From NCBI GenBank assembly GCA_028717685.1, contig JAQUNI010000001.1, positions 54,306-118,305 on the forward strand: a stretch of 64,000 nt of DNA. Direction: 5' to 3'. This document shows, piece by piece, positions 446 to 63,348 of the stretch; within the stretch, counting starts at the first letter, position 1; every line of letters begins with the position of its first letter. The notes under the pieces were generated by a model. The model was not told where the DNA came from. It saw only the letters and a program-made list of their open reading frames with translations, and did not search any database. A program made the position numbers and the translations under genes. Source of the stretch: Patescibacteria group bacterium. Its GTDB lineage: Bacteria; Patescibacteriota; JAQUNI01.

Positions 446-829
446 TTACGAAGTACGAATTATAGTTTTAGTAGTTTTAATGAGGCCATTGATCATTTTA
501 CTAAGTTCAATGGTTTGGGTAGCTACAGGGTCAAAATCTTTATTGCTCAAATAGTTTATATCTCTGGCAATTAACAACTGATTTTGAACCTCGGTTAAGG
601 ATCCTAAAGCGCGGCAATAAAACTGCATCTTCTCTTTATAAGAAGGTCTACTAAATCCTTCAGCAATATTAGAAGTGAAAGAAACGGCTGCTCTCCTTAA
701 TTGGCTAGTTAAACCAAAGATTTCTTCTCTGGGAAATTTTTGGGTGACTTTGTAGATCATCAAGACTAATTTGTGTCCTTCTTTCCAAACTCGCAAATCG
801 GTAAAAGATTTAATTTTATTTTGATCCAT
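446..829 (-). CDS. four-helix-bundle protein (23S rRNA intervening-sequence protein / Avd-like fold family)
   Basis: 127 aa. Shares the conserved core with the two pilus-locus paralogs (W-x-K, LT-Q-RRAAVS-SNIAEG). Lies 10 bp from tRNA-Gln. Confidence 0.6.
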   Translation of the reverse strand: MDQNKIKSFTDLRVWKEGHKLVLMIYKVTQKFPREEIFGLTSQLRRAAVSFTSNIAEGFSRPSYKEKMQFYCRALGSLTEVQNQLLIARDINYLSNKDFDPVATQTIELSKMINGLIKTTKTIIRTS

Positions 830-5084: not shown

Positions 5085-5789
5085 ATGCACCTTGCAAAAA
5101 CTACGGCGGCACTCCATATGGGTTCCGAGCTAATCGGTAAAATATACAGAACCCAAGGAGGCTTAGCGCTAAGGATCGTGCGCGTGGTTCATCAATGGCC
5201 AATTTTCAAATGGGTCACAGCGGATATATTGACAGCAATGCGTATGGTAATTGCATTTACCAATGTCTTGCTGTTTATCCTAGGAATAAAATGGGGCTTA
5301 AAGAATTTTCTTCCTTTCTTGCTAAGCCTTACCATTATTGCCTATGGATCCGACCTCTTTGACGGACAAATGGCCCGCTTGGAAGTAGAAGAAGGGAAAA
5401 AGAAAAAAGATACAAATTTTGGTCCTTGGTTTGACAATATGGCGGACAAAGCCGTATGCATACCAAGTATGTTTTTCATAATGTGGTTGCGGAGAGTTTA
5501 TCTTGCGCCGATTGCAATGCTAATCGTAGATATCACTTTGGGAATTTTTCGCTGGGTGATTGCTCGGAAATATAAAATCCAGCTTAGCGCTAATCATTAT
5601 GGAAAATTCAAAACATGGTTGCAGGGTTTTAGTATCAATTTTGTTTTAGTAGACTACCTTATTCCGGGTATTGGACAGGTGGGATATTACATTTTGCTCT
5701 TTGGGGCTATCCCTGTAGGCATATTAAGCTTCCTAAAACATTATCAGAATGCATATCCTCAAATCAAGAGAGCGCAAAACGGGCTTTGA
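5085..5789 (+). CDS. CDP-alcohol phosphatidyltransferase family protein
   Basis: 234 aa membrane protein with DG-x2-AR...G-x3-D-x3-D (DGQMAR...GPWFDNMAD). Confidence 0.6.
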   Translation: MHLAKTTAALHMGSELIGKIYRTQGGLALRIVRVVHQWPIFKWVTADILTAMRMVIAFTNVLLFILGIKWGLKNFLPFLLSLTIIAYGSDLFDGQMARLEVEEGKKKKDTNFGPWFDNMADKAVCIPSMFFIMWLRRVYLAPIAMLIVDITLGIFRWVIARKYKIQLSANHYGKFKTWLQGFSINFVLVDYLIPGIGQVGYYILLFGAIPVGILSFLKHYQNAYPQIKRAQNGL

Positions 5790-5889
5790 AATAAAAGGCC
5801 CTTTTTTTTATCAATTTAATGAGGTAAAATAGGAGAAGGAATGAAATTATTCTACCTTGAATTACGAAATTCATTTGTCTATTAGCAGG

Positions 5890-5965
5890 CTATTCTCCCT
5901 CCCCCTCCAACTCCCCCTCGGGCAGGGGGAGTGTAATCAAGCTTATCGCTAATAGACGATACATT
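5890..5965. repeat. GC-rich ~76 bp element, copy 1 of 2 (second copy at 26135..26210)
   Basis: ctattctccctccccctcc-aact-ccccctcgggcagggggagtgtaatcaagct..., about 90 percent identical to the second copy; contains the hairpin ccccc-tcgggca-ggggg. Confidence 0.6.
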
Positions 5966-5992
5966 TTAGAATAATTAGAAATTTACAAATTT

Positions 5993-7459
5993 ATGCTTCA
6001 ACTCTACAACACTCTAACCAAAAAAAAGGAAACATTTATACCTCTGCATCGCGGCAAAGCAACGATGTATACCTGCGGTCCGACGGTTTATAATTACGCC
6101 CACATTGGCAATTTTCGCGCCTATTTAACCGCGGACATTTTGCGCCGTTTTTTGGAATATTCAGGCTATGAAGTAAAACACGTAAAAAATATTACCGATG
6201 TGGGACACTTAACGTCTGATTCCGACACTGGCGAGGATAAAATTGAAGCAACCGCGAAAAAGAAAAAATTGGATCCTTATGAAATTTCGCGTTTTTACAC
6301 GGAAAGATTTTTAGAGGATGAGGCACGGCTTAATATCCTCCCGGCGCACAAATATCCCCGCGCCACCGCGCATATTCAGGAAATGATTAAAGCAATCGCC
6401 AGTTTAATCAAAAATGGCTACGCCTATGAAAAAAATGGCAATGTATTTTTTGATATTGCGCGCTTTAAAGATTATGGTAAATTATCCGGCAACACTTTGG
6501 AAAAACTAAAACAAGGAGCGCGGATTGAACCCCATCCGGATAAAAAAAATCCTTTTGATTTTGCCCTCTGGAAAAAAGCGGAAAAGGACCATATTATGCG
6601 CTGGGAATCGCCTTGGAGCGCGGGGTATCCCGGGTGGCATATTGAATGTTCAGCAATGAGCATGGAATACCTTGGCGAAACATTAGATATTCACACGGGC
6701 GGAGAGGATAATATCTTTCCTCACCACGAAGATGAAATCGCCCAATCAGAAAGTTTAACAGGCAAGCCCTTTGTCCATTATTGGGCGCATACAAGCTGGC
6801 TCCTTGTGGACAACGAAAAAATGAGCAAATCGCGCGGTAACTTTTACACTTTGCGCGATCTTGTTAAACTTGGCTACTCGCCGATGGCTTTCCGGCTTTT
6901 GGTTTTGCAATCACACTACAAAAGCCATCTCAATTTCACCCATGGGGCAATTGACGCGGCGCAAGAAGGCTTACAAAAAATATACGATTTTACAGAAACT
7001 ATGCTCTTATCCGGCGAACACGAAAAAGGCGGCGCTTCGCCTCAAACAATCCGAAAGTTGATAAAGGAATACGAAAAAAAATTCATAGAAGCGCTGAACG
7101 ACGATTTGAATACGCCCCAAGCCGTAGCCGTATTGTTTGATTTTATACGAAAAATCAATAATCTCGCTCCTCTGCGCAAGCGCGAAGCAAAGCCGATTTA
7201 CAAATTTATATTACATTTGGATCGGGTTTTGGGACTCAAGATAGACAAAGTGGGTCAAGAAAAGCAGGAAATTCCAGAAGAAATAAAAAAGATGGCAGAG
7301 GAAAGAGAAAAGGCGCGCGAGGCAAAAGATTTCGCGCAAGCGGATAACTTGCGAAGGGAAATTAAAAAGGCCGGATTCCTAATCCGCGATACAAAGAAAG
7401 GCGCAATTTTGACTAAAAAAAGAGGGCACTCTCTAAACAGTGCCCACGTAAGGAGCTAA
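5993..7459 (+). CDS. cysS: cysteine--tRNA ligase
   Basis: 488 aa, class I motifs HIGN (AHIGNFRAY) and KMSKS (KMSKSRGN). Confidence 0.92.
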   Translation: MLQLYNTLTKKKETFIPLHRGKATMYTCGPTVYNYAHIGNFRAYLTADILRRFLEYSGYEVKHVKNITDVGHLTSDSDTGEDKIEATAKKKKLDPYEISRFYTERFLEDEARLNILPAHKYPRATAHIQEMIKAIASLIKNGYAYEKNGNVFFDIARFKDYGKLSGNTLEKLKQGARIEPHPDKKNPFDFALWKKAEKDHIMRWESPWSAGYPGWHIECSAMSMEYLGETLDIHTGGEDNIFPHHEDEIAQSESLTGKPFVHYWAHTSWLLVDNEKMSKSRGNFYTLRDLVKLGYSPMAFRLLVLQSHYKSHLNFTHGAIDAAQEGLQKIYDFTETMLLSGEHEKGGASPQTIRKLIKEYEKKFIEALNDDLNTPQAVAVLFDFIRKINNLAPLRKREAKPIYKFILHLDRVLGLKIDKVGQEKQEIPEEIKKMAEEREKAREAKDFAQADNLRREIKKAGFLIRDTKKGAILTKKRGHSLNSAHVRS

Positions 7460-11328: not shown

Positions 11329-11610
11329 ATGTTTGACTCTCTTAAAAATCTCAACCAATTAAGGCAACAAGCTAAAAAAATCAAAAAAGAATTAGGTAAA
11401 GAAATCTTGATCGGCACCGCGGAAGATGGCAAAATTCAAATCACGATGGACGGCAACCAAGAGGTGAAGGCTGTGCGCGTAGAACCGGATTTGCTTACTT
11501 CCGAAAACAAGGAAAAAATTGAAAAAGGCATCAAAGAAGCGATTACCCAATGCATTACCCAAATGCAAATGGCGATGGCAAGGAAGATGCAGAATGGAGG
11601 AATGTTTTAA
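11329..11610 (+). CDS. ybaB: nucleoid-associated protein YbaB/EbfC
   Basis: 93 aa with the typical YbaB pattern; sits upstream of recR, the classic arrangement. Confidence 0.85.
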   Translation: MFDSLKNLNQLRQQAKKIKKELGKEILIGTAEDGKIQITMDGNQEVKAVRVEPDLLTSENKEKIEKGIKEAITQCITQMQMAMARKMQNGGMF

Positions 11611-11746
11611 GTTAAAAGTTAAAAGTGCAAAGTGAAAAGTTGAATTTAAAGTTTAAAGTTTCTTTTGTAAAAGCAGCTGCTCCGCAATAATTTTGTACTT
11701 TAAACCGCAATTTTGAACTTTGAATTTTTAACTTTGAACTAATTTT

Positions 11747-12915: not shown

Positions 12916-14037
12916 CTATAAAGAAACATTACGCGCCTCCTTACGGCGGTACCGCAAAACCAAGGTTAAAGCCAGACTAACCATAACGACGATCATAATG
13001 ATCAGCGCCAAAAGTTTTTCTTTAGCTTGTAGAAACAAACCCGAAACCCCAAAGGCAAAAGATAAAAAATATAGAAAGAGCACGGCTTGACGATGAGTAA
13101 AGCCAATGCCCAAAAGACGGAAATGCAGATGTTTTGCGTCGCCCTTAAATGGCGAACGGTGCTCAAAAAAGACACGGCGGCAAATCACCCACAATGCGTC
13201 TAAAATCGGAATCCCCATAATAAGGAGCGTGGTGGCGATTTTTCCTCCCGCTAAAATAGCAAGCACCGCAAGCATAAAACCAGCGAACGTACTCCCGCCT
13301 TCGCCTAAAAAAATCTTCGCTGGATGGAAATTCAGAACTAAAAACCCCAAGAATGCGCCGGCGCAAATCACGGATAATAAAGCCGTTTCTGGCTGGTGCA
13401 CGGCTTGGCTTAAACTTAAAAAAAACAAAATGCCTGCTCCAATCGCTGTAACCCCCGAAGCCAAACCATCCAAACCATCCAGATATTTCGTAGTGTAGAT
13501 CATGCCCAAAATCCAGAAAAAGGCAAACAAATCCGCAAACAAAGTAAGATAATAAGGAATACCCGCTAAAGTAAAAATATGGATTTTCACCTGATCAAAA
13601 TAAAAAAGCCCACCCAAAGGATTAGTCGCGTATTTGATGCCAATGCCGGAAGCTACGATGGCGGCAGCGGCAAGGAGCGGCCAGATAAACTGCTTCCACG
13701 GTTTCAAATTATATTTGTCGTCTAAAATTCCTCCAATCATTAAAAATAAGCCGCCTATTAAGACGCCAATAATATTTTTCAGCCTAATCGTGCCTGTGGC
13801 TAAACTATGCGTAAAGAAAAGGTAAAATAGAACTACCAAAGCGAAAGCCGCATAAACCGCCAGACCGCCTAAAAGAGGAATCGGCGCCTTTTGAATCTTG
13901 CGTGGTAAAATTGGATAATCCAAAATCTTGAAATGCAAAGCCAACTTGCGTACTAAAAAAGTCAAAATCAAACATAGCAACGCTCCAATGAAAAAGGGAG
14001 GAATAAAACTGGCTAAATTATAATTGAAAGTTGACAT
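12916..14037 (-). CDS. glycosyltransferase family 4 polyprenyl-phosphate sugar-1-phosphate transferase (MraY/WecA family)
   Basis: 373 aa, about 10 TM helices, IPLLGG loop, conserved D-x-x-D region and DAKHLHFRLL motif. Confidence 0.65.
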   Translation of the reverse strand: MSTFNYNLASFIPPFFIGALLCLILTFLVRKLALHFKILDYPILPRKIQKAPIPLLGGLAVYAAFALVVLFYLFFTHSLATGTIRLKNIIGVLIGGLFLMIGGILDDKYNLKPWKQFIWPLLAAAAIVASGIGIKYATNPLGGLFYFDQVKIHIFTLAGIPYYLTLFADLFAFFWILGMIYTTKYLDGLDGLASGVTAIGAGILFFLSLSQAVHQPETALLSVICAGAFLGFLVLNFHPAKIFLGEGGSTFAGFMLAVLAILAGGKIATTLLIMGIPILDALWVICRRVFFEHRSPFKGDAKHLHFRLLGIGFTHRQAVLFLYFLSFAFGVSGLFLQAKEKLLALIIMIVVMVSLALTLVLRYRRKEARNVSL

Positions 14038-14145
14038 TGAAAAAAATTAAAAATGAAAAGTGAAAAATGTAAAATTAAATTGAAAACAATTTTTTCATTT
14101 TAGATTGTGATTTTTAATTTTTCATTTTATATTTTACGTTTTCTA

Positions 14146-18044: not shown

Positions 18045-18181
18045 ATAATTTTCCCTGCGAAAAATTTTCAATTTTCAATTTCTAATTTTTATTAAATTTT
18101 TAATCTTAAAATTTTTAAACATTTAAAATTGATTTATTGAAAATTTAATAAAAATTGAAAATTAGAAATTAAAAATTACTT
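18045..18181. repeat. AT-rich MITE-like element, copy A (terminal inverted repeats aattttcaatttctaattt / aaattagaaattaaaaatt)
   Basis: Left TIR 18070..18088, right TIR about 18160..18178; element ends in aaaattactt directly abutting the ATG of the next gene. Highly similar to copy B. Confidence 0.55.
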
Positions 18182-19933
18182 ATGAAATGGCTCACTAAAT
18201 TTGCTCCTCCTCTTCTGATCACTATAATAGTTTTGGTTTCCTTTTTTTCGGTCCAAAAAGATTCCGCGATTATGGATGAGGTCGCCCATATCCCTGCTGG
18301 CTATTCCTACCTGAAATTTGGAGACTACCGCTTAAATCCCGAGCATCCCCCTTTAGCGAAAATGCTGTCCGCTCTTCCTCTCCTTTTCTTGCACCTCCAA
18401 TTCCCCTTAAACCATCCCACTTGGACAACCGACGTGAATGGTCAATGGGAAGCGGGATATCAGTTTTTATACCACCTTGGCAATGACGCGGATCAAATAC
18501 TCTTTTGGTCGCGCCTGCCGATTATCGCTCTTTTAATCTTGCTGGGGATCTATGTCTGGAAATGGGCAAAAGAGCTCCTGGGGGCAAAATGGGCGCTGGC
18601 GGTTCTGTTTTTGTATGCTTTCTCTCCCACGATTATTGCCCATAGCCACTATGTGACCACTGATTTAGCCGCAACATGTTTTATCTTTATCGCCTTTTAT
18701 TATTTTGTTCATTATTTAAAAAAACCGAGCCTTAAGAATACTCTTTTGGCTGGTCTTGCTCTGGGCTTAGCCGAGGTCGCTAAATTTTCGGCGGTTCTTC
18801 TTTTCCCGTGTTTTGTTCTCCTTGCCCTTATTCCCCTCCTTTTAAACAGGTCTCCCCAAACTTCTTGGCTCAAGCAAACAAAAAACCATATCGGCAAATT
18901 TATCCTCATTTGTTTGATCGCGCTCGGAGTAATCCTTATTGTCTATCAACCCGCGGTCTGGGCTTTCAATTTAGAAAAACAACAAGAATTAATCCGCGGT
19001 TCTATCGGACCGGAAAAAATTGAAAATATTGTGCTCGCTATAAGTAAAATCCCAGGAGCGCAAGGTTTTGCCCAATATATCTTGGGCGTTGTGATGGTCT
19101 TTGCCCGCGTGGGAGGCGGCAACACCAATTACTTCTTGGGTCAGGTTTCTAATCAAGGGTGGTGGTATTATTTCCCAACCTGTTTTTTTCTAAAAGAAAC
19201 AATTTCGGTCTTAATCTTAACAGGATTAGCTTTGCTTTTTGTGATTCGCAAATTTGTCATCAATCTCGTAAAAGACCGTCCGCGCAAATGGCTTCCTTGG
19301 TTTAGGGAATACGCGCTTTGTCATCTGGCGGAAATCTCAATGGTAGTTTTTATCATTGTTTATGGGGTAGTCAGCATGAGAGGCAAACTGAACTTAGGCG
19401 TCCGCCACATTATGGTCCTTTTCCCCTTTATCTATATTTTAATCATTAAAGAATTCAAACGGCGTATAGCAGAAACTGCCTATAAAAAACTTTTCACAGG
19501 AATATTGATTGTTCTCCTTGTTTGGGTTGGCGTGGAAGTCACGATAAATTATCCTTCGTACCTTGCTTATTATAACGAGCTTGGTGGCGGTCCGAAGAAT
19601 GGCTATAAATTGATCACAGATTCCAATCTGGACTGGGGGCAGGATTTAAGACGTATGGCGGAATGGGTGAACGCCAATCCTGAAATCTCAAAAATTAAAG
19701 TAGATTATTTTGGCGGCGGAGTGCCCTCTTATTATCTTGGCGATAAATATCAAGAATGGCATTCGCAAAATGGACCAACAACGGGTTGGATTGCTGTCAG
19801 CGCAAATTATTTTTCTGAAAGTATTTATCGCAAAGATTCCACCTTTGCCACCTCTTACTATTATCTAGAATTAAAAAAGCCCGAAAAAATCTTCGGGCAT
19901 TCCATATTTGTGTATTATATACCGGAGGAATAA
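18182..19933 (+). CDS. GT-C glycosyltransferase family 39 (ArnT/PMT-like), second tandem paralog
   Basis: 583 aa polytopic protein; loop motif MDEVAHIPAGYSY and PEHPPLAKML resemble the ArnT/PMT family. Confidence 0.7.
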   Translation: MKWLTKFAPPLLITIIVLVSFFSVQKDSAIMDEVAHIPAGYSYLKFGDYRLNPEHPPLAKMLSALPLLFLHLQFPLNHPTWTTDVNGQWEAGYQFLYHLGNDADQILFWSRLPIIALLILLGIYVWKWAKELLGAKWALAVLFLYAFSPTIIAHSHYVTTDLAATCFIFIAFYYFVHYLKKPSLKNTLLAGLALGLAEVAKFSAVLLFPCFVLLALIPLLLNRSPQTSWLKQTKNHIGKFILICLIALGVILIVYQPAVWAFNLEKQQELIRGSIGPEKIENIVLAISKIPGAQGFAQYILGVVMVFARVGGGNTNYFLGQVSNQGWWYYFPTCFFLKETISVLILTGLALLFVIRKFVINLVKDRPRKWLPWFREYALCHLAEISMVVFIIVYGVVSMRGKLNLGVRHIMVLFPFIYILIIKEFKRRIAETAYKKLFTGILIVLLVWVGVEVTINYPSYLAYYNELGGGPKNGYKLITDSNLDWGQDLRRMAEWVNANPEISKIKVDYFGGGVPSYYLGDKYQEWHSQNGPTTGWIAVSANYFSESIYRKDSTFATSYYYLELKKPEKIFGHSIFVYYIPEE

Positions 19934-20090
19934 ATTTCTAATTTTCAATTTCTAATTTCTATTAAATTTTTAATTTTAAAATTTTCAAACACCATTAGAA
20001 ATGAAAAATTTCTAGACGGGATAAACCTTTTAAAAATTAATTCATTAGAAATTTAATAAAAATTGAAAATTAGAAATTGAAAATTACTTA
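19934..20090. repeat. AT-rich MITE-like element, copy B
   Basis: Left TIR 19940..19958 and right TIR 20067..20085 are perfect reverse complements; internal sequence near-identical to copy A; right end overlaps the stop codon of the convergent gene. Confidence 0.55.
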
Positions 20091-22469: not shown

Positions 22470-22499
22470 AAGCTACGGTTTTTTTATTCTACTAGACCC

Positions 22500-22640
22500 T
22501 TCTCCGCCTCCCGCTTCCCAAGGGGAGAGGAGTTATTATCCCCTCCTTTCCAAGGAGGGGCTAGGGGAGGTTCTGAGTCAGAACCCCACCCATCCTCCCC
22601 TTGGAAAGGGGAGGTGGGGGGAGAAAGGAAGGGGTCTTTC
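22500..22640. repeat. GC-rich imperfect palindrome / hairpin cluster (probable bidirectional terminator)
   Basis: Hairpins cccctcc-tttccaa-ggagggg and cctcccc-ttggaaa-ggggagg arranged around the perfect palindrome ggttctgagtcagaacc, between the island and the convergent serS. Confidence 0.5.
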
Positions 22641-23950: not shown

Positions 23951-26068
23951 TTAAAGTCCTAAATTTTGAGATATATCTTGCATCGCCCGGAGGCCGATTT
24001 TCACAAACTCTTCTAAAGATAAACCAAAGGATTCACAAGAAGTAATTACTTCTCGCCGCGCGCCTTGGGCGAAGGATTTTTCTTTAAATCTCTTTAAGAT
24101 AGACTGCATTGATAAATCAGATAATTTTTTTGATGGCAAAACCAAGGTGGCAGCCACAATCAAACCAGTCAAAGGATCCACAGCGTAAATCGCTTTTTCC
24201 ATCAAGGTTTTGCGAGGCGCGCCGCATTGATCATTATGCGCCTTAATGCCAACCAAAATTACGGGATGCACTCCTTCCTGCTCTAAAATCCCTACGGTGG
24301 TCGGACCGTGTTTTTCCGGCGCTTCGCGATAATCAAACATTTCCATATCTAAGTCGTGCAGAAGACCAGTAAGCCCCCAGACTTCCTTATTCTTTTGAAA
24401 ATGCTTGGCAAGAGCAGCCATTATCGCTTCCGTTGCCAACATATGTTTGCGCGAATTTTCATTCTTCACATATTGGCAAACCAAATCCCAAGCTTTGGCG
24501 CGCGTAATCCCTAGGTTCTCTGCCTCTTCGTTTTGAGCGGGCGCTTTTGTCGCTGGACAGACCTTTTGCGTATTTAATGGTTTCATTAAAGGAAAAAATA
24601 CTGCCTCACGGATGCTCGGAGCGTTGGTTAAAAACATTACCAGACGATCAATACCCATGCCCCAACCCGCGATCGGCGGCATTCCGTATTCCATTGCCCG
24701 CACATAATCTTCATCCATCATATGCGCCTCCGCGTCTCCCGCTTCCCGCATTTCAACCTGTTCTTCAAAACGCCTACGCTGCTCCAGAGGGTCAACTAAC
24801 TCAGAATAAGCATTGACTAATTCCTGCCCTAAAACCACTAACTGAAAACGATCCACAATCTTTGGATTCTGGTCATTCCTGCGCGCCAAGGGCGATAATT
24901 CAATGGGATGACCAGTTAGAAAAAGGGGACCTTTAATTTTCGGCCGCGAAACCTTTTTGTATAATTGATCTACTAAACCCCCAAAGCCTAATTTGCCAAA
25001 GCCTTCAATTTCAATTTTTTTCTTCCGCATTTCCTTTCTAAGTTTCTCCGCGGTATCAGCCTTGTTAATATCAATACCGCAATCTTCCAAAATCAAGCTT
25101 CCAAAATTTTTTCTCTGCCAAGGAGGAGTAAAATCTATTTTCTGACCTTGATAGTCAATCTGCAAGCTCCCAAAAACGCGGTTTAAGAGATAAACCAACA
25201 TTTCTTCAGTTTGCGCCATTAAAAATTCATAATTTTTGTAAGCCCAATAAAATTCCAGCATCGTAAAATCTTGAAGATGGGCGGTGTCCATTCCTTCATT
25301 GCGAAAAACCCGCGCCATCTCAAAAACCTTTTCCAAACCGCCTACAATTAAGCGCTTCAAATATGTTTCCGGCGCAATCCTTAAATACAAGGGAATTTGC
25401 AGGGCTTCGTGCTCTGTAATGAAAGGACGCGCGAGCGCGCCCGAAGCCTTGGTTTGAAGCACTGGCGTCTCCACCTCCAAAAAACCCCTCTCCGTCAGAA
25501 AATCACGCAGGGCATCGCAGATCTCCGCGCGCTTTTTGAAACGCTCACGCACTTCCGGATGAACAAGCAGATCCAAATAACGTTCCCGAAATCTAATCTC
25601 TTGATTAGAGAGACCTTTCCATTTTTCCGGCAAAGGACGGATGGATTTAGCGAGAATTTTATAATCGGAAACGAGGAGGGTTCTTTCCCCTTTCCGAGTG
25701 ACAAATACGGTTCCTTGGAGTTCAATAAAGTCGCCAATGTCAAAATTTTTAAAAAATTTGTATTTCTCCGGACCTGAAATGTCTTTTTTGAGATAAGCTT
25801 GGATTCTGCCGCTTTCATCATCAATATGGATGAAGGTAGAGCCGCCGTGTTCGCGAATGTTGCGTATGCGCCCCGCGACCACAATCTCGCCTTTTTCTTT
25901 TTCTATGGCTTCAAAATCATCCAATATTTTTTTGACTGTATGCGTCCGACGCGAAGAATCAGGGTAAGGATTGATTTCGGCTTTTAAAATTTTATTCAAT
26001 TTTTCTTTGCGATTTTGGATTAAATCTTTAAGCATATATTTTATTATACCTTGAGTTACGAAATTCAT
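23951..26068 (-). CDS. lysS: lysine--tRNA ligase (class II) fused to a C-terminal HD-domain phosphohydrolase
   Basis: 705 aa. Residues 1 to about 500 are a complete LysRS. The last ~200 aa carry HD-domain motifs: H (RKHMLATEA), HD (LLHDLD), H (KAHND), D (YAVDPL). Confidence 0.85.
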   Translation of the reverse strand: MNFVTQGIIKYMLKDLIQNRKEKLNKILKAEINPYPDSSRRTHTVKKILDDFEAIEKEKGEIVVAGRIRNIREHGGSTFIHIDDESGRIQAYLKKDISGPEKYKFFKNFDIGDFIELQGTVFVTRKGERTLLVSDYKILAKSIRPLPEKWKGLSNQEIRFRERYLDLLVHPEVRERFKKRAEICDALRDFLTERGFLEVETPVLQTKASGALARPFITEHEALQIPLYLRIAPETYLKRLIVGGLEKVFEMARVFRNEGMDTAHLQDFTMLEFYWAYKNYEFLMAQTEEMLVYLLNRVFGSLQIDYQGQKIDFTPPWQRKNFGSLILEDCGIDINKADTAEKLRKEMRKKKIEIEGFGKLGFGGLVDQLYKKVSRPKIKGPLFLTGHPIELSPLARRNDQNPKIVDRFQLVVLGQELVNAYSELVDPLEQRRRFEEQVEMREAGDAEAHMMDEDYVRAMEYGMPPIAGWGMGIDRLVMFLTNAPSIREAVFFPLMKPLNTQKVCPATKAPAQNEEAENLGITRAKAWDLVCQYVKNENSRKHMLATEAIMAALAKHFQKNKEVWGLTGLLHDLDMEMFDYREAPEKHGPTTVGILEQEGVHPVILVGIKAHNDQCGAPRKTLMEKAIYAVDPLTGLIVAATLVLPSKKLSDLSMQSILKRFKEKSFAQGARREVITSCESFGLSLEEFVKIGLRAMQDISQNLGL

Positions 26069-26134
26069 TTTGTTATTGTGGGAGATTTTTCCTCCTCTTG
26101 ACCTGCGGGAGACAGGGAGGGGTCTAATAAATGA

Positions 26135-26210
26135 CTATTCTCCCTCCCCCTCCGCCTCCCCCTCGGGCAGGGGGAGTGTAATCAAGCTCCTCGTTAATAG
26201 ATGACATATT
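26135..26210. repeat. GC-rich ~76 bp element, copy 2 of 2
   Basis: ctattctccctccccctcc-gcct-ccccctcgggcagggggagtgtaatcaagct..., near-identical to 5890..5965. Confidence 0.6.
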
Positions 26211-26258
26211 CCGCAATTCAAGGTCTTTAATATATTATACCAAAAACCGTAAATTTTA

Positions 26259-26293
26259 CCAAACAAAAACAGAGACGCAAAATTTCACGTCTC
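26259..26293 (-). terminator. intrinsic terminator after greA
   Basis: On the minus strand: agagacg-tgaaattttg-cgtctct followed by GTTTTTGTTT. Confidence 0.5.
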
Positions 26294-26322: not shown

Positions 26323-26814
26323 TTAAGATATTTCCAAAATTTTGTATTCTATCTTACCACCCGGGGTCTCCACCTCTACTGTATCTCCTTTTTTCTTACC
26401 AAGAAGCGCCTGACCAATCGGGCTTTCATTAGAAATCTTCCCCAATGGAGGGTCAGCCTCGTTGGAGCCGACAATAGTAAATTCCTTCTCGCTGGCATTA
26501 TTTTTCACCTTCACACTGTTTCCCACTGCCACAATATTATGCTGACCATTTTTATCAATAATAACCGCATTTTTAATCGTATTTTCAATCTCTATGATCT
26601 TTCCTTCATTAAAAGCCTGTTCATCCTTTGCGTCTTGGTATTCCGCGTTTTCAGAAAGATCGCCCAGTTCCTTGGCTACTTTAATCCGATTGGCAATTTC
26701 TCTTCTCTTGACTGTCTTGATAAACTCCAATTTTTCTTTTAATTTTTTAAGCCCTTCGGCAGTAATATATTTCTTTGTCATATTTTGTAAGTTTTTTAAA
26801 ATGCGCTTACGCAC
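26323..26814 (-). CDS. greA: transcription elongation factor GreA
   Basis: N-terminal coiled-coil plus C-terminal FKBP-like domain; acidic tip LGDLSENAEYQDAKDEQ. True start is probably the internal Met at 26781 (MTKKYITAEGL). Confidence 0.85.
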   Translation of the reverse strand: MRKRILKNLQNMTKKYITAEGLKKLKEKLEFIKTVKRREIANRIKVAKELGDLSENAEYQDAKDEQAFNEGKIIEIENTIKNAVIIDKNGQHNIVAVGNSVKVKNNASEKEFTIVGSNEADPPLGKISNESPIGQALLGKKKGDTVEVETPGGKIEYKILEIS

Positions 26815-31410: not shown

Positions 31411-31518
31411 AAAAAAGCGTAAAGTGAAAAGTGTAAAGCGTAAAGTGTAAAAAATAATAACCCAGTATTTTAAGTTGCACGCTGTTCATTTTATGCTTTA
31501 CGCTTTAAGTTTTAAGCT

Positions 31519-32559
31519 TTATTTATACTGCGTGTCCACCAACACCTCGCGCAAGAGGTCTAAATTTTCTAAGACCATGCCCGCGCCCCGAACAACACAA
31601 GTCAAGGGATCATTGGCGATCTGGACGGGCATCTGCGTCTCGCGTGCGACAAGACGGTCAAGACCGCGCAGGAGCGCGCCTCCGCCCGCCAAAATAATAC
31701 CCCGATCCATAATATCCGCGACAAGTTCAGGAGGGGTTTCCTCAATCGTTCCTTTAATATTAGAAACTAGATTTCTGATGGAACGCGATAAGGCTTCGCG
31801 CACCTGACTATCATTAATAATCACCTCCTTTGGCAGACCCGTGACGAGGTCCCGACCGCGCAACTTTGCTTCCAAGGGTTTCTTCAAAGGCCAAGCCGAG
31901 CCAATGGCGATTTTAATTTCTTCGGCTTTCCTTTCGCCGATTAATAAATTAAAGTGGTCGCGGGAATATTGAATAACATTCTCGTTTAATTCATCTCCCG
32001 CAATCCGCAACGATCGCGCCACCACGCCCCCGCCCAGAGAAATTACCGCCATCTCGGTTGTGCCGCCGCCGATATCCACAATCATACTTCCCGAAGCATC
32101 TTGCACGGGAAGGCGGGAACCGATGGCCGCGGCCATCGGTTCTTCAATCAAGAAAGCTTGCCTCGCGCCAGCCGTGCGCGTGGCATCCTCCACCGCTCGC
32201 CGCTCCACTTCGGTGCAGCCCGAAGGAATGCCAATCACTACCCTAGGTCGCGGAATAAGAGTGAACATTCCTTGGTGCACCTTCTGAATAAAATATTTTA
32301 ACATCTGCTCGGTCACTTCAAAATCAGAAATCACCCCGTCCACAAGTGGACGAGTGGCTACAATATGCATCGGCGTTCTTCCCACCATCTTTTTCGCTTC
32401 ATTGCCAATTGCCAAAACCTGACCCGTCTTCGTATTCATAGCCACGACCGAAGGCTCATTGATGACGATGCCTTTCCCACGCACATACACTAAGGTATTC
32501 GCTGTCCCTAAATCAATGCCGATGTCGCGGGAAAAAGCGCCTAAAAAACGATTAAACAT
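31519..32559 (-). CDS. mreB: rod shape-determining protein MreB (actin-like)
   Basis: 346 aa, IGIDLGTANTLVYV phosphate-1 motif and DIGGGTTE. Confidence 0.92.
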   Translation of the reverse strand: MFNRFLGAFSRDIGIDLGTANTLVYVRGKGIVINEPSVVAMNTKTGQVLAIGNEAKKMVGRTPMHIVATRPLVDGVISDFEVTEQMLKYFIQKVHQGMFTLIPRPRVVIGIPSGCTEVERRAVEDATRTAGARQAFLIEEPMAAAIGSRLPVQDASGSMIVDIGGGTTEMAVISLGGGVVARSLRIAGDELNENVIQYSRDHFNLLIGERKAEEIKIAIGSAWPLKKPLEAKLRGRDLVTGLPKEVIINDSQVREALSRSIRNLVSNIKGTIEETPPELVADIMDRGIILAGGGALLRGLDRLVARETQMPVQIANDPLTCVVRGAGMVLENLDLLREVLVDTQYK

Positions 32560-32624
32560 AATTTGGAATTAGGAATAGAGAATAATGAATAAGGAATAAG
32601 GAATTCTGAAAGTTACGCAATTCC

Positions 32625-32675
32625 TAAAAAAGGAGTAAGCAGAAATCTAAGGCAAACGCTTAACTCCTGCTTCCT
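32625..32675 (-). terminator. intrinsic terminator after proS
   Basis: On the minus strand: GGAGTTAAGC...GCTTACTCC stem (one bulge) followed by T6. A related sequence occurs after mrdA at 27833..27885. Confidence 0.5.
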
Positions 32676-32699
32676 AATTCCTGATTCCTGATTCCCAAC

Positions 32700-34187
32700 C
32701 TAGTACGCTTGGGCGAAGAGCCAGCGATATTTCGCGTCTTTGCCGCAGTAAATACATTTACCTCTCTCTTCCTTTACGTCAAGCTCCAAACATCGCGCAG
32801 TCGCACGAGTTTCTTCTTTAATCTTATCCTCGCATTCGCTCTTCTCACACCAAAAGGCGCGCAGAAAACCCCGCTCCTTCTTCATTATATCTTGAAACTC
32901 CGGATAAGAATCAATAAGATGGGTGTGCTCTTGCGTGAATTTTTGGTGCCGCTCGAAAATCTCTTTTTGCATTATCTCCAGAGCCTTGCGAACCATAGAC
33001 GGCAATTCCGCAAGTTTTATTTTCTCTTTAACAAAATTATCGCGCCTGACTAAAGTCGCCGCTCCCGCTTTCATTTCCCGCTCACCAATTTCCACGCGCA
33101 GAGGCACCCCTTTCAATTCCCACTTATTAAATTTAAAACCGGCAGTTTCTCCTTCTCTTAAATCCACTTCCACGCGGAAATCTTGGAGCGACTCTTTCAC
33201 CTTTTCCGCAAAACCCAATACCTTGTCCTGACTTTCTGTTTTGAATATTGGAATAATGATGACCTGTAGGGGCGCGATTTGCGGAGGGAGAACCAAACCA
33301 TTATCATCGCCGCCCGCCATCACAAGACCGCCGATGCTGCGCGTGGAAAGACCCCAGCTGTTCTGCCAAGGATAAAGATCGCGCCGGTCTTTGTTTTGCA
33401 CGGTCCAATGAAAAGCGCGCGAGAAGTTTTGACCCAAATCGTGCGAAGTGCCACCCTGCAGAGCCCTGCCATCCGGCATCAAAATTTCAAAACTAAAAGT
33501 TTTTGCGGCGCCGGCAAATTTTTCTCTCTCGCTCTTCACGCCCGCGATGCCATAAAGAGATAAAAGCTCATTGTAGACTTTTTTGTATGTTTGAAGCGCC
33601 CACGTTACTGTCTCCAGACTCTCTTTCTGGGTCGCGTGCGCGCAGTGCCCTTCCTGCCACAAAAATTCCGAAGTCCTTAAAAATAAATAGGTTCTTTTCT
33701 CCCAGCGCACTACATTATTCCACTGATTAATCATAATCGGCAAGTCGCGCCAAGACTTCACCCATTTTTTGTACATTTCATACATCACAGTTTCCGAGGT
33801 GGGACGAATCACAAGTTTCTCTTTCAGTTTCTCGCCGCCTGCTTCCGTGACAACAGCCATCTCCGGAGCAAATCCCGCCACATGCTCTTTCTCTTTATTT
33901 AAAAAACTTTCCGGAATAAAAAGGGGAAAATAAGCATTTTGGACGCCATGGGTTTTAATTAAAGGGTCAAGAAAGGCTTGGATTTTCTCCCACAAAGCGT
34001 AACCATAAGGCCTAATAACCATACAGCCCTTCACAGGCGCGTAATCCGCGAGTTCCGCTTTCAAAATAACATCTTGATACCACTTTCTTAGATCTTGGCT
34101 CTTTTTGGTAATTTGTTTAACCCTCCCGCTGTTCGCCTCAGATAAACTGTTTGAGGATTTCGCTTGTTCGGTTTTATTTTTAATCAT
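32700..34187 (-). CDS. proS: proline--tRNA ligase (archaeal/eukaryotic type)
   Basis: 495 aa, class II core and a C-terminal zinc-binding domain ending CIYCGKDAKYRWLFAQAY. Confidence 0.9.
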   Translation of the reverse strand: MIKNKTEQAKSSNSLSEANSGRVKQITKKSQDLRKWYQDVILKAELADYAPVKGCMVIRPYGYALWEKIQAFLDPLIKTHGVQNAYFPLFIPESFLNKEKEHVAGFAPEMAVVTEAGGEKLKEKLVIRPTSETVMYEMYKKWVKSWRDLPIMINQWNNVVRWEKRTYLFLRTSEFLWQEGHCAHATQKESLETVTWALQTYKKVYNELLSLYGIAGVKSEREKFAGAAKTFSFEILMPDGRALQGGTSHDLGQNFSRAFHWTVQNKDRRDLYPWQNSWGLSTRSIGGLVMAGGDDNGLVLPPQIAPLQVIIIPIFKTESQDKVLGFAEKVKESLQDFRVEVDLREGETAGFKFNKWELKGVPLRVEIGEREMKAGAATLVRRDNFVKEKIKLAELPSMVRKALEIMQKEIFERHQKFTQEHTHLIDSYPEFQDIMKKERGFLRAFWCEKSECEDKIKEETRATARCLELDVKEERGKCIYCGKDAKYRWLFAQAY

Positions 34188-40245: not shown

Positions 40246-40746
40246 AATGAAAACTTAAAACGAAAAGCGTAAAACGCAAAACTACAATGCAAAACTTAAA
40301 ACTTTTTTTATCTTACTTGACGCCTTGATTATAGCATAGCGGAAATTGACGAGTCAAAGGAACGAATCTAGCAGTTGGAATTAAGAATCAAGAATTAAGG
40401 GATTGTTATATTTGTTTCATTGTTGCATTGTTGCATTGTTGAATTCGTAAATATCTTTTCGACCGTCATTGCGAGGCTATTTCCATAGAATCTTAGAAGC
40501 TACATTATCAACCCCCCTACCCCCTTGCCAGGGGGGTCAATTTTTTCCCCTTAGAAAATGAAGGGTGGGGGCTGGAAAAATTTTCTCCCCTGATAAGGGG
40601 AGAAGCAAGAGGGGTTGTAAAATGTAAATCAAAAAAGACAAGATTTTTTTTCTTGCCTTTTCTGTTGTAACCTCTTGATAATCTAATTTTTTAAAAATAG
40701 AACTTTAAGCCCCTCACTTGGTGGCATGGGGGAGAATTCAGAGAGA

Positions 40747-46994: not shown

Positions 46995-47102
46995 AAATTC
47001 GGAATTAGGAATAGGGAATTATGAATCATGAATCAGAAATTAGGAAGCGAGGAAAAAAGCTGTTCATCTTTATTCCTGATTCCTGATTCCCACTTCCTTT
47101 AG

Positions 47103-47561: not shown

Positions 47562-47640
47562 AATGTTGGAATTAGGAATTGTGAATCAGGAATTAGGAAA
47601 GAAGAAAAAAGGCTATTCATCTTTATTCCTTATTCAGATT

Positions 47641-48030
47641 TTATGTTTTTTCTGACGCCGACCTGCGACCGCTGCCTGCTGTTTTACGGACATTGCCCCG
47701 CACTGTCCGAGAGTTGGTGCGGGTACGTTGACCGCGGGCAGGAAGATTCTTCGCGTGCCGCGAGCCCCTATAACTTCCAATTTCTTTAAGACGTTTAATA
47801 TTGGTGGCGACTATCCTTCTTAAATCCCCTTCCACCTTATATTTTTTTTCAATAATATCCCGGAGCCTCCCTTCTTCTTCACTCGTCAGGAGAGACACAT
47901 GTTTATCGACATCCACCCGCGCCTCCACTAAAATTTTTCTAGCCAAAGATTGCCCTATGCCATAAATATAGGTTAAACCAATCTCTATTCTCTTATTGGG
48001 AGGTAAAATAACCCCTGCGATGCGAGCCAT
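47641..48030 (-). CDS. rpsM: 30S ribosomal protein S13
   Basis: 129 aa, [26 protein letters not shown]. Confidence 0.92.
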
Positions 48031-48132
48031 AAAATTGGAATTGTGAATTATGAATTATGAATTATGAAATTTGACAGCACATTCTTAATTTTAGATTTTC
48101 GCGATTCGTAATTCGTAATTCTAGATTCGGTG

Positions 48133-48246
48133 TTAGCCTTGCCTTTGTTTATGTTTGGGATTTTCACAAATCACAAAAACCCGTCCCCTCCGCCGGACAA
48201 TTTTACATTTTTTGCAAATCTTTTTTACAGAAGGTCTGACTTTCAT
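48133..48246 (-). CDS. rpmJ: 50S ribosomal protein L36
   Basis: 37 aa, not in the ORF track (<60 aa): [37 protein letters not shown], with the C-x2-C...C-x4-H zinc ribbon; between infA and rpsM as expected. Confidence 0.88.
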
Positions 48247-57312: not shown

Positions 57313-59061
57313 ATGAAGGACAAATTAAAAAACGATACAGTCAATTCCAACGGGGTGAAATTTGACGACAAAACAATAAAGAAGATTCTCTTAAAAGGGA
57401 ACTATATTACTGAAGAAGATGTTAAGAACGCGGATGATTTTGCCACAACGCACCAAGTGTCATTCATAGGGTATCTGCTCCAAGAAAATCTCATCACCAA
57501 GGACCTCTTGGGGCAGGCGATTGCCGAATCGTTCAAGGTTCCCTACGCTGACTTAAATTCAGCACCACCCGCACCTCTGCAGGTGCAAAAAATTCCGGAG
57601 GAGACCGCGAAAAAATATCACGCGGTTATTTTCGCTGAAGAAAAAAACAAAACCGTAGTCGCCACCGATAATCCAGAAGATCCAACACTCCTGCCGGAAT
57701 TAGAAAAGCTGTTTGTCGGCAGGAGGTTGAGCATTGTCTATTCGCTGACCGAGGACATCAACGCGAGCTTTGTGCATTATCAAAAGCCGCTTGAAACCCG
57801 CTTCTCTAAGATTATTGAGAGCAAAGGGCGAGTCGCGCCAGAGCTTTTGGAAGAAATTTTTGATGACGCGCTCGTATATCATGCCTCCGACATCCATTTT
57901 GAACCCAGGCAGAAAGATGTGCTTGTGCGGTTTCGCATTGACGGCGTTTTACAAGAAACCGGCAGGATCCCCAAAGAATATTACGAAAATATTCTTAATC
58001 GCATCAAGGTGCAAAGCGGTTTGCGCATTGATGAACACTTTGCCGCGCAAGACGGTTCGCTCCGGTATGAACCCTCCTCCTTTAAAGCTTCCTCCTACGC
58101 TAACGCTCCAGCGGGCAAAAAGGATAGCGTTGTTGTTGACCTTAGAACCTCAGTTGTCCCCACTGTTGAAGGAGAAAAAGTGGCATTGCGCGTACTCTCG
58201 GCATATGTGCAAGGATTTTCTCTTGGTGATCTTGGTCTTTCGCCGGCACATCAGCAGATACTTGAGCAAGCCGCCACAAAACCATTTGGCATGATTCTCG
58301 TAGCAGGTCCCACTGGTTCCGGAAAAACCACTACGCTTTACGCACTTTTGAAACTTGTAAATAGCCCAGAGGTGAACATCACCACTATTGAGGACCCGGT
58401 GGAGTACAGGGTGCTCGGCGTGAATCAAATTCAAATCAATCCTCTAACAAATCTCACTTTTGCCAAAGGACTGCGTTCTATCGTCCGCCAAGACCCGGAT
58501 ATTATTCTGGTCGGCGAGATTCGCGACGAAGAAACAGCAGAAATCGCCGTAAATGCGGCACTCACCGGCCATCTTCTCTACTCCACATTTCACGCCAACG
58601 ATGCCGCTACCGCCATTCCTCGGCTTCTGGATATGGGCATTGAACCGTTTCTTTTGGCTTCCACGCTTGAGGTTATTGTCGCCCAGCGACTCGTGCGTAA
58701 AATTTGCGAACATTGCCGGCATAGTGTTACCAAATCGGCAAATGATTGGAAGACGCCTCAGCTTCGGTCAGTTATGCCATATCTTTCCAAAAAGTCGATC
58801 ACGCTCTATGAAGGGAAGAAGTGCGAGATGTGCGGCTATACGGGGTACAAAGGACGAACTGCTATTTTTGAATTCATCCAAATCACTCCGGAGATGCGGA
58901 ATCTCATCTTACACTCCCCGTCAACTAAAGAAATCTGGCAACTCGCCAGTAAGGATGGTTCAAAAACACTTTTTGAAGACGGCATTGAAAAAGTTAAGAC
59001 TGGAGTAACCACAATAGAAGAGCTGCTTCGCGTCGCCGAACCGCCGCAGAAGAGTGGGTAG
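57313..59061 (+). CDS. pilB: type IV pilus assembly ATPase PilB (GspE family)
   Basis: 582 aa: N-terminal GSPII_E N1 domain, Walker A VAGPTGSGKTTT, Asp/His boxes, tetracysteine motif (CEHC...CEMC). Confidence 0.9.
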   Translation: MKDKLKNDTVNSNGVKFDDKTIKKILLKGNYITEEDVKNADDFATTHQVSFIGYLLQENLITKDLLGQAIAESFKVPYADLNSAPPAPLQVQKIPEETAKKYHAVIFAEEKNKTVVATDNPEDPTLLPELEKLFVGRRLSIVYSLTEDINASFVHYQKPLETRFSKIIESKGRVAPELLEEIFDDALVYHASDIHFEPRQKDVLVRFRIDGVLQETGRIPKEYYENILNRIKVQSGLRIDEHFAAQDGSLRYEPSSFKASSYANAPAGKKDSVVVDLRTSVVPTVEGEKVALRVLSAYVQGFSLGDLGLSPAHQQILEQAATKPFGMILVAGPTGSGKTTTLYALLKLVNSPEVNITTIEDPVEYRVLGVNQIQINPLTNLTFAKGLRSIVRQDPDIILVGEIRDEETAEIAVNAALTGHLLYSTFHANDAATAIPRLLDMGIEPFLLASTLEVIVAQRLVRKICEHCRHSVTKSANDWKTPQLRSVMPYLSKKSITLYEGKKCEMCGYTGYKGRTAIFEFIQITPEMRNLILHSPSTKEIWQLASKDGSKTLFEDGIEKVKTGVTTIEELLRVAEPPQKSG

Positions 59062-59103: not shown

Positions 59104-59463
59104 ATGAAAATTGAATCGTACGAAAATTTAATTGTGTGGCAAAAGTCAATGGATCTGGTGATTGCTGTTTATGCATTGACAGAAAAATTTCCAAAAGAAG
59201 AACTATACGGTTTAACTTCACAAATGCGCCGCGCAACTGTTTCAGTTCCTTCCAATATTGCGGAAGGTAGTAGGCGTGGTTCTCGAAAAAATTTTAGAAA
59301 TTTTTTACTCAATGCGTATGGTTCCAGTGCAGAGCTTGGGACTCAGATCAAAATCGCGAAACGGCTTTCATACGGAAAAACCAAAAATTATGAGCAAGCG
59401 GATGCACTGCTTGATGAAGTAATGCGCATGTTAGACAAATTGACGTATGGGCTCAAAGAATAA
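59104..59463 (+). CDS. four-helix-bundle protein (23S rRNA IVS-protein / Avd-like fold family), copy 1
   Basis: 119 aa (MKIESYENLIVWQKSMDLV...LTSQMRRATVSVPSNIAEG); about 92 percent identical to the copy at 61765..62124. Confidence 0.7.
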   Translation: MKIESYENLIVWQKSMDLVIAVYALTEKFPKEELYGLTSQMRRATVSVPSNIAEGSRRGSRKNFRNFLLNAYGSSAELGTQIKIAKRLSYGKTKNYEQADALLDEVMRMLDKLTYGLKE

Positions 59464-61752: not shown

Positions 61753-61764
61753 TTGGTAGTAAAT

Positions 61765-62124
61765 ATGAAAATTGAATCATACGAAAATTTAATTGTGTGG
61801 CAAAAGTCAATGGATTTAGTGATTGCTGTTTATGCATTGACAGGAAAATTTCCAAAAGCAGAACTATACGGTTTAACTTCACAAATGCGCCGCGCGGCTG
61901 TTTCAATTCCTTCCAATATCGCGGAGGGGAGCAGGCGCGGTTCTCGGAAGGATTTTAGAAATTTTTTACTCAATGCGTATGGTTCTGGTGCAGAGCTTGA
62001 AACTCAAGTTAAAATTGCGAAACGACTTTCATACGGAAAAACCAAAGATTATGAGCAGGCGGACGCGCTGCTCGATGAAGTAATGCGCATGTTAAACAAA
62101 TTGACGTATGGGCTCAAAGAATAA
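61765..62124 (+). CDS. four-helix-bundle protein (23S rRNA IVS-protein / Avd-like fold family), copy 2
   Basis: 119 aa from the ATG at 61765 (the ORF track starts at an upstream TTG). Ten substitutions relative to copy 1. Confidence 0.7.
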   Translation: MKIESYENLIVWQKSMDLVIAVYALTGKFPKAELYGLTSQMRRAAVSIPSNIAEGSRRGSRKDFRNFLLNAYGSGAELETQVKIAKRLSYGKTKDYEQADALLDEVMRMLNKLTYGLKE

Positions 62125-62751: not shown

Positions 62752-62823
62752 GGATTAGTTTGTAGTGAGTAGTTGGTAGGTTGTAGTTTTCTACTCACTA
62801 CTCACTACAAACTACAAACTAAC
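62752..62823. repeat. inverted-repeat hairpin of the leader-coding motif with no gene in the loop
   Basis: agtttgtagtgagtagttggtag...ctactcactactcactacaaactacaaact: the same arms that flank the 4HB genes, here adjacent, just upstream of the pilin ATG at 62824. Confidence 0.6.
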
Positions 62824-63348
62824 ATGCTACCAACTACAAACTACCAACTACAAACCCAGCGTGGCTTCACGCTAATTGAACTGCTTCTCTATGTTGCCGT
62901 TGCGTCGGCGATACTTTTGGCGATTTCGGTTTTTCTTTCAATCCTCCTTCAGTCGCGCATCAAAAATCAAACTATCGCTGAAGTGGAACAGCAGGGGCTT
63001 CAAGTTATGCAACTCGTTACGCAAACCGCGCGCAACGCCGAGGCAATCACCTCGCCAGCGCAGGGCGCAAGCGCTTCATCTTTGACGCTTGACGTTATTT
63101 CTGCTGCCAGTGACCCCACTATTTTTGATCTCGCAAGCGGCGCGATTCGCGTCAAAGAAGGGGCTGGTTCAGCTACCGCTCTTACTAATTCTCGCGTTAC
63201 CGCTTCCGCTCTCACATTCCAAAATCTCTCTCGCACCGACACTCCGGGCACGGTTCGCGTCCAATTCACCCTCGCACATACAAATCCAGAAGGCAGAAAT
63301 GAATACTCATTTACTAAAACATTTATCGGCTCTGCGAGCCTGCGCTAG
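62824..63348 (+). CDS. type IV pilin-like protein
   Basis: Start taken at ATG 62824 (ORF track: 62773). Leader MLPTTNYQLQTQRG, cleavage motif G/FTLIEL (Glu at +5), hydrophobic helix LLYVAVASAILLAISVF. Confidence 0.7.
   Translation: MLPTTNYQLQTQRGFTLIELLLYVAVASAILLAISVFLSILLQSRIKNQTIAEVEQQGLQVMQLVTQTARNAEAITSPAQGASASSLTLDVISAASDPTIFDLASGAIRVKEGAGSATALTNSRVTASALTFQNLSRTDTPGTVRVQFTLAHTNPEGRNEYSFTKTFIGSASLR

Follow-up and report, generated by a model that had tools for sequence, protein, structure and literature searches.

Why a near-identical, GC-rich sequence should precede two aminoacyl-tRNA synthetase genes, cysS and lysS, is the question raised by this locus within the 64,000 nucleotides of DNA from a Patescibacteria group bacterium that were analyzed (hereafter, the window). 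The available evidence makes it probable that the two copies belong to a lineage-restricted, miniature non-coding transposon-like (MITE-like) repeat family in Candidatus Doudnabacteria. The original prediction, that a mobile or structural element is likelier than a shared promoter, is supported by the presence of inverted ends, at least seven copies, orthologous sites from which the element is absent, and a 7-bp target duplication.

The stretches at 5890-5965 and 26135-26210, on the same strand, differ at 8 of 76 nt (89.5% identity), and ungapped similarity between them reaches 89 nt (5877-5965 versus 26122-26210) at 85%. A 32-mer, CTCCCCCTCGGGCAGGGGGAGTGTAATCAAGC, is identical in both copies and occurs in the window at 5911 and 26156 only (0 expected; 100 shuffles). 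The hairpin CTCCCCC-tcgggca-GGGGGAG, with a C-rich run ahead of it, is present in both, and the GC contents of the two 76-bp sequences are 53 and 55%, compared with 49% for the full copy, 34% for intergenic DNA in the window and 44% for coding DNA. The approximately 90% identity, the hairpin with its C-rich run, and the GC-richness (53-55% versus 34%) that had been described for the pair are thus confirmed, as are the gene positions, with one copy upstream of cysS and the other upstream of lysS in the opposite orientation; the latter copy is inverted relative to its gene because lysS is on the minus strand. By contrast, the assigned extent of 76 bp was too short. This stretch is only the inner part (core) of a longer non-coding element with inverted-repeat ends and shared arms outside the core; core-bearing elements span 112-198 bp, and all elements measured span 112-222 bp.

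A full-length unit, of approximately 175-200 bp, is bounded by 16-nt outer terminal inverted repeats (CCTTGAATTACGAAAT ... ATTTCGTAATTCAAGG), within which inner inverted repeats of 10-13 nt (GTCTATTAGC ... GCTAATAGAC) enclose two GC-rich hairpin modules. Module 1 comprises a GC-rich hairpin and a G-rich tail; module 2, the part first noticed, comprises a C-rich head and the CTCCCCC/GGGGGAG hairpin, followed by GTGTAATCAAG. The complete plan is visible in the copies on two contigs from outside the window, L003 and L004, and the lysS-proximal copy (copy 2) also has every part.

The cysS-proximal copy (copy 1; 5855-5966, plus strand, as delimited by alignment; nhmmer 5838-5991, E 6.5e-36) is a 112-bp short form, located between a CDP-alcohol phosphatidyltransferase gene (5085-5789) and cysS (5993-7459, plus strand), with 27 nt between the end of its core and the cysS ATG (5993). 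Its left outer terminal inverted repeat, CCTTGAATTACGAAAT (5855-5870, plus strand), is an exact match to the consensus arm, and its left inner inverted repeat, GTCTATTAGC (5877-5886, plus strand), pairs via perfect arms with the right inner inverted repeat, GCTAATAGAC (5948-5957, plus strand). Between these lies module 2 (5890-5931, plus strand), with the C-rich head CTATTCTCCCTCCCCCTCC and then the hairpin (5911-5931), a region that is near-invariant in four aligned copies. Module 1 and the right outer inverted end are both lacking. Copy 2 (26049-26223, plus strand, by alignment; nhmmer E 1.7e-58) is full length, at 175 bp, and occupies most of the spacer that separates lysS from greA (26323-26814), both of which are on the minus strand. 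The left arm CCTTGA(A/G)TTACGAAAT is common to both copies, at 5855 and 26049, and in copy 2 forms the left outer terminal inverted repeat, CCTTGAGTTACGAAAT (26049-26064, plus strand). This is followed by module 1, an extra 47 bp relative to copy 1 (26078-26124, plus strand, from alignments), with its G-rich tail ending GGGGTC; by GTCTAATAAATGAC (26122-26135), which repeats the inner inverted-repeat motif internally and in direct orientation; by module 2 (26135-26176, plus strand), with its C-rich head and hairpin (26156-26176); by the right inner inverted repeat, CTCGTTAATAGAT (26190-26202, plus strand), which has 2 mismatches to the consensus CTCGCTAATAGAC; and by the right outer terminal inverted repeat at 26208-26223, the reverse complement of the arm, which on the minus strand reads CCTTGAATTGCGGAAT. 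Module 1, which is absent in copy 1, is present in the copies on L003, L004 and a third contig, L012. Because two direct GTCTA(T/A)TA motifs bracket module 1, its absence from copy 1 could reflect deletion between them; alternatively, module 1 could be a secondary insertion.

The elements have strong predicted folds, and the hairpins are symmetric, such that they would form on either strand. The plus-strand RNA fold of 5850-5992 has z = -4.7, with the inner inverted repeats paired; the minus-strand fold of copy 2 has a predicted energy of -70.9 kcal/mol (z = -5.6), and the fold of the L004 copy, with a long closing stem and three hairpins, reaches -87 kcal/mol (z = -9.6). In the six complete elements the two 16-nt outer arms differ from one another by 1-4 mismatches, and across these arm pairs there are 18 one-sided changes and 0 compensatory ones; on sequence grounds, such uncompensated decay is the pattern of decaying transposon ends, not that of a selected RNA stem. 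The core is better conserved than the ends in four aligned copies. This extra conservation is in part a matter of ascertainment, since the L003 and L004 copies were fetched by an exact core 28-mer; the copy at L012 1127-1290, which was found independently of the core, via its arms, differs at approximately 5 of 52 core positions (~90% identity). Core conservation was therefore set aside as a sign of function, being largely due to ascertainment.

A protein of a Candidatus Doudnabacteria metagenome-assembled genome (MAG) shares 95% identity with the window LysRS, and the search for further copies also led to this lineage. A core 28-mer scan of public metagenome contigs retrieved L003 and L004, and a C-head pattern scan of species-representative genomes gave two real matches, both in that same MAG (L006, which is the L003 contig, and L012); nine further matches to the C-head pattern, in GC-rich genomes, e.g. 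of Streptomyces and Gemmatimonadales, were set aside as chance. An exact core 30-mer ending AATCAAGC had no match in the genome contigs scanned, because relatives differ in its last bases. With nhmmer, seven core-bearing copies are identified: the two in the window (5855-5966 and 26049-26223), L003 6448-6645, L004 117-289, and three on L012, which lie inside 2.6 kb. The seven span three sampled sources and both orientations relative to genes. In 202 kb of Doudnabacteria DNA there are 13 occurrences of the outer arm when up to 2 mismatches are allowed, versus 0.5 in shuffles, with matches only in the window, in close-relative MAG contigs (L003, L012, L016 and the Logan contig L018) and in L004. 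There was no arm match in contigs of relatives at 81% identity or below, or in the 9.8-kb contig of a relative with 94% CysRS identity, and viral contigs, phage records and plasmid records contain no match to the element.

The genes next to the outside copies are varied. The L003 copy neighbours two glycosyltransferase genes; the L004 copy neighbours a gene for a 172-aa protein without a Pfam match, downstream of the leuS 3' end (leuS being one gene away); and the L012 copies neighbour genes for an unknown 352-aa protein, an unknown 242-aa protein and an HD-domain protein. At L012 2340-2570, the upstream ORF for the 352-aa protein (1305-2363) has its last codons and stop inside the element. 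Taking the direction of flanking transcription as reference, the C-rich sense applies to two copies and the G-rich sense to three, one copy is between convergent genes and one is between divergent genes, i.e. there is no strand or orientation preference relative to genes among the seven. Only two of the seven adjoin synthetase genes, both in the window. The search for further copies and their neighbours thus went against the implied synthetase link, which rests on the window copies, because not one of the five copies found in related contigs has a synthetase gene as its immediate neighbour; within the available data, the position beside two tRNA-synthetase genes looks coincidental.

Evidence for mobility comes from comparison of related sites. 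In L016, a 120-bp element flanked by TAAATAG and TGAATAG separates mreC from the gene that follows, while the orthologous mreC spacer of the window has TAAATGG once and no element. The filled site reads TTTTTAAATAG-(CCTTTAATTACG...TTCAAAG)-TGAATAG-AGAATC, with the element in parentheses, and the window reads TTTTAAATGG-AGAATT, so that, as aligned, L016 carries a clean insertion of 120 bp accompanied by a duplication of 7 bp; this filled/empty pair concerns another cargo type that shares the ends, not a core-bearing copy. For a core-bearing copy, that on L003, a perfect 7-bp duplication, TAGTAAA, is present directly outside CCTT...AAGG. A clear 7-bp target duplication is seen at two of the six complete elements, the other four being without one. 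Unrelated cargos are found inside the same outer arms at L003 501-663, L016 9766-9987 and L016 5176-5295.

At the cysS site, the element is absent from relatives with 94, 81 and 73% CysRS identity, which keep the upstream terminator and the -10-like box and have other sequence between that box and cysS. The cysS leaders turn over very quickly among close relatives. In the cysS leader of the 94% relative (L023 7020-7100), different, short tandem duplications (GTCTCAAGATCT twice, GCGTAGCCATGA twice) are present in place of the element. At the greA-lysS site, the 95% relative (L016 9766-9987) has the same arms with identical boundaries and a different, partly chimeric cargo; this cargo recurs at L003 501-663, L012 4713-4812 and L016 19589-19638, and one of its inner repeats is of the window type. 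The combination of shared boundaries and different cargo indicates exchange of cargo by recombination between family members. At the same site, the spacer of the 81% relative is without arms and contains unrelated GC-rich hairpins, and that of the 70% relative is only 124 nt long and contains no element. At both loci, Logan short-read contigs break off within the element, 79 nt short of cysS and 75 nt short of lysS, which is the behaviour expected at assembly-graph repeats. On L012 (2340-2570 and 3530-3700), GC-rich inserts of 60 and 31 nt are nested exactly in the CTCCCCC/GGGGGAG hairpin loop.

The location of the two window copies relative to transcription signals is of interest with respect to possible effects on expression. 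At lysS, a promoter-like TTGGTA-17-TATAAT sequence with an upstream TG (26234-26262, minus strand) is outside the element, just upstream on the lysS strand, and is preceded by a terminator-like hairpin of greA (26296-26269, lysS strand); its TGnTATAAT box is kept in the 95 and 81% relatives. Copy 2 starts approximately 10 nt downstream of the promoter-like site and stops 13 nt short of the probable ATG of lysS (26035); if this promoter is used, copy 2 would thus be essentially the whole lysS 5' leader, in the G-rich sense. A TATAAT 7 nt before the lysS ATG is in the flank, outside the element. The longest lysS ORF (23951-26068, minus strand) has its start at 26068, adding 11 codons (MNFVTQGIIKY) inside the left arm of the element; the start at 26035 is likelier because the 95%-identical homologue has 694 aa, and it is this spurious extension that the left outer terminal inverted repeat of copy 2 overlaps. 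The window LysRS has a C-terminal HD domain (PF01966) fusion, as do many homologues in Patescibacteria, Spirochaetota and Planctomycetota.

At cysS, the terminator-like hairpin of the upstream gene (5781-5801 and a T-run) and a -10-like TAAAAT (5825-5830), together spanning 5781-5830 on the plus strand and outside the element, are kept in all relatives; the sequence from there to cysS is not. Copy 1 lies between this box and a second conserved -10-like box, TAGAAT (5967-5972), which has counterparts in relatives, and thus either forms part of the cysS leader, in its C-rich sense, or immediately precedes a proximal promoter. Copy 1 is flanked by AATTATTCTA (5845-5854) and TAGAATAATT (5967-5976), which make up a perfect inverted pair of 10 bp; in the 81% relative this pair is present without the element. 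A consensus scan at both loci found no promoter inside the element. For annotation purposes, the element explains the unusually long GC-rich spacers before cysS and lysS, the spurious 11-codon extension of lysS and the breaks in short-read assemblies.

Prokaryotic MITEs are typically less than 500 bp, have no coding capacity and have terminal inverted repeats of approximately 4-30 bp, with flanking direct repeats mainly in young copies and fading with time (PMC10969869). They occur as dispersed copies with insertion polymorphism between related genomes, in AT-rich intergenic targets, and have a related autonomous insertion sequence, the transposase of which acts in trans; their transcripts form very stable stem-loops and they are typically AT-rich, this being a tendency, not a requirement (PMC10969869). 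The Doudnabacteria elements are 112-222 bp and non-coding. A conserved ORF is impossible because there are indels of 22, 31, 47 and 60 nt between copies and both orientations are used; ORFs of 43-44 aa across copy 2 were rejected as small proteins, being unpreserved given these indels. Their 16-nt terminal inverted repeats are within the typical range, with the right arm of copy 1 lost. The target duplications are TAGTAAA (L003) and TAAATAG/TGAATAG (L016), the latter checked against the empty site of the window. Seven core-bearing elements and at least three with the same arms and other cargo are dispersed over approximately 200 kb. The tendency to AT-richness is not followed by the core (53-55% GC), although the arms and target sites are AT-rich. 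Neither a transposase domain (Pfam) in window ORFs at 36-63 kb or in element neighbours, nor a transposase in the gene lists of L003, L012, L016, L021, L023, L024 and L027, which cover a small fraction of each genome, nor a longer element with the same ends in the approximately 200 kb sampled, was found.

It may be that the outer ends are recognized by a transposase supplied in trans, which cuts AT-rich intergenic targets with a 7-bp stagger, and that recombination or gene conversion between copies then shuffles the cargo, with elements persisting because intergenic insertions would be tolerated. Read-through leader transcripts of lysS (G-rich sense) and cysS (C-rich sense) would be predicted to form very stable hairpins, which could incidentally alter mRNA processing, stability or translation, by analogy with Correia and ERIC elements. 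There is no indication of a synthetase-specific function and no new regulatory principle for tRNA synthetases; the two leaders are, however, natural test cases for hairpin effects, since they concern two essential genes and opposite senses. The family would represent an active, or recently active, miniature mobile repeat in a small-genome CPR bacterium. No description of MITEs or related repeats in Doudnabacteria or CPR bacteria was found in the literature search, as far as which shows these would be the first repeats of the kind to be described for this CPR lineage.

Other readings of the same features have to be weighed against a MITE-like origin. The position of both window copies, immediately upstream of synthetase genes and downstream of conserved promoter-like boxes, is what would be expected of a cis-regulatory leader RNA common to aminoacyl-tRNA synthetase genes (T-box-like or other); two out of two copies upstream of such genes is nominally unlikely within the window, and the transcripts would be strongly structured. 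Such a leader is, however, highly improbable and largely refuted. Transcription would read the two copies in opposite senses, the orientation at cysS being opposite to that at lysS; the element is missing from the cysS leaders of close relatives, and a different cargo is found in the lysS leader of the 95% relative; none of the five outside copies directly abuts a synthetase gene; and the closing stem is without compensatory changes. No covariance-model match was obtained, i.e. there was no T-box (RF00230)/Rfam match at the gathering threshold, at E<=10 (copy 1) or at E<=1 (copy 2). Permissive Rfam matches at both loci, to eukaryotic microRNA models and similar, were weak and chance-level, and were rejected. 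At gathering thresholds only a tRNA-Gln is matched in the whole window, and ARAGORN gave no tRNA-like gene at either copy. That the hairpins would form on either strand is compatible with a host-maintained structural element (e.g. a bidirectional terminator or insulator, a hairpin processed by RNase III, or a site bound by a protein) that is kept similar by gene conversion and spread by recombination, not by transposition, as are the intergenic location, the hairpin-forming repeats in many spacers of the genome, and the cargo exchange at the fixed greA-lysS site, which shows recombination between copies. This too is improbable: the 7-bp duplications, the absence from orthologous sites of near relatives and the uncompensated decay of the arms all argue against it, there is no T-run after the hairpins, and a terminator scan gives only the separate terminators of the upstream genes.

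The GC-rich hairpin modules might themselves be the real repeat units, of a REP/REPIN-like type and moved by a single-copy REP-associated tyrosine transposase, with the AT-rich arms being pre-existing intergenic hairpins that serve as their insertion sites. The two modules are units of one kind in inverted orientation, the presence of module 1 varies independently of that of the arms, and on L012 the loop of module 2 contains nested GC-rich inserts. Similar arm-less hairpins occur at 22595-22613 and 40585-40602 (4 matches versus 0.03 expected), there is a REPIN-like inverted doublet at 22540-22614, and mobilization of this type would account for the arm-less hairpin clusters at 22490-22640 and 40505-40620. 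Further, AT-rich hairpins are present in many spacers, and copy 1 is within the pre-existing AATTATTCTA/TAGAATAATT pair. Against this, the mreC insertion is delimited precisely by the outer arms and has a 7-bp duplication, as is typical of terminal-inverted-repeat transposition, and the 16-nt arm recurs at unrelated sites with different cargos, so that the arms belong to the repeat; the DNA sampled yielded no Y1-transposase (RAYT) gene. The mobile unit hence has inverted ends and a 7-bp duplication, even though GC-rich palindromic modules are present, and a REP/REPIN-like origin is unlikely. There is also little probability, in our judgment, that the elements represent a Doudnabacteria-specific nested insertion system targeted to hairpin apices, with stems excised or processed from transcripts, as opposed to ordinary transposase-driven MITEs. 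In such a system GC-rich modules could enter hairpin loops and inverted-end units could enter AT-rich heptamer hairpins, and the long stems could be processed by analogy with RNase III-cleaved 23S rRNA intervening sequences; three genes for 23S rRNA-intervening sequence proteins in the window, bracketed by heptamer-array inverted repeats, would fit this hairpin-with-cargo logic. If so, a tiny genome could tolerate, or exploit, elements in essential leaders, e.g. those of lysS and cysS.

The target duplication of the Correia elements, MITEs of Neisseria, is TA, and in this respect they differ from the Doudnabacteria element, which has a 7-bp duplication and no detected element-borne promoter. 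The resemblance to Correia elements is architectural only, the host here being a CPR bacterium: these are non-coding, of approximately 100-200 bp, with terminal inverted repeats of similar length; they are dispersed as many intergenic copies, often just upstream of genes with which they are co-transcribed, the transcript being a long hairpin; and they have internal-deletion subtypes and strain-dependent insertion sites (PMC10969869). The BOX, RUP and SPRITE repeats of Streptococcus pneumoniae are likewise modular hairpin units, variable in number, with mutual insertion and clustering (PMC10969869), for which the counterparts here are the optional module 1 and the inserts nested within the loop of module 2; they are unrelated in sequence and, by contrast with them, the Doudnabacteria element shows a 7-bp duplication, and its terminal inverted repeats are well defined and shared. 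REP and REPIN sequences, short GC-rich imperfect intergenic palindromes that occur as inverted doublets (cf. window 22540-22614) and are lineage-restricted and vertically persistent (PMC3116915, PMC3337134), are not bounded, as are the Doudnabacteria units, by AT-rich terminal inverted repeats with target duplications. QMITE2 of Coxiella burnetii, with direct repeats of 7-9 bp, terminal inverted repeats of 23-29 bp, a 113-145 bp core and a very stable predicted transcript fold (PMC10969869), is similar in plan, but its sequence and host are unrelated and the core of the element studied here is GC-rich and modular.

The window contains other repeats. The GC-rich hairpin clusters without outer arms at 22490-22640 and 40505-40620 are of the CCCCT/AGGGG type, and the inverted doublet at 22540-22614, with 37-nt arms 1 nt apart, is just downstream of serS; at the equivalent position downstream of serS, L016 has a module-1-like match (13439-13486). 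Many spacers contain long AT-rich hairpins, the arms of which are imperfect tandem heptamers of a class that differs by site (AAAAATG, AATTTTC, AAAGCGT, ACTACAA, GGAATTA, ACGAATT and others), including those at 11604-11740, 14043-14142, 18063-18177, 19933-20086, 31414-31521, 32560-32700, 46996-47098, 47563-47635, 48025-48134, 62755-62855 and 63371-63484. The outer arm GAATTACGAA resembles the ACGAATT class. The three genes for 23S rRNA-intervening sequence proteins (PF05635; also bAvd-like) are at 446-829 (minus strand), 59104-59463 (plus strand) and 61753-62124 (plus strand), bracketed by inverted heptamer arrays at 431-470/844-878, 59065-59102/59457-59506 and 61726-61763/62118-62160, respectively, and look like hairpin-with-cargo insertions. 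Two of them share a common 300-nt repeat (91% identity) and are located in a type IV pilus cluster (T2SSE, 57313-59061; T2SSF, 59447-60886).
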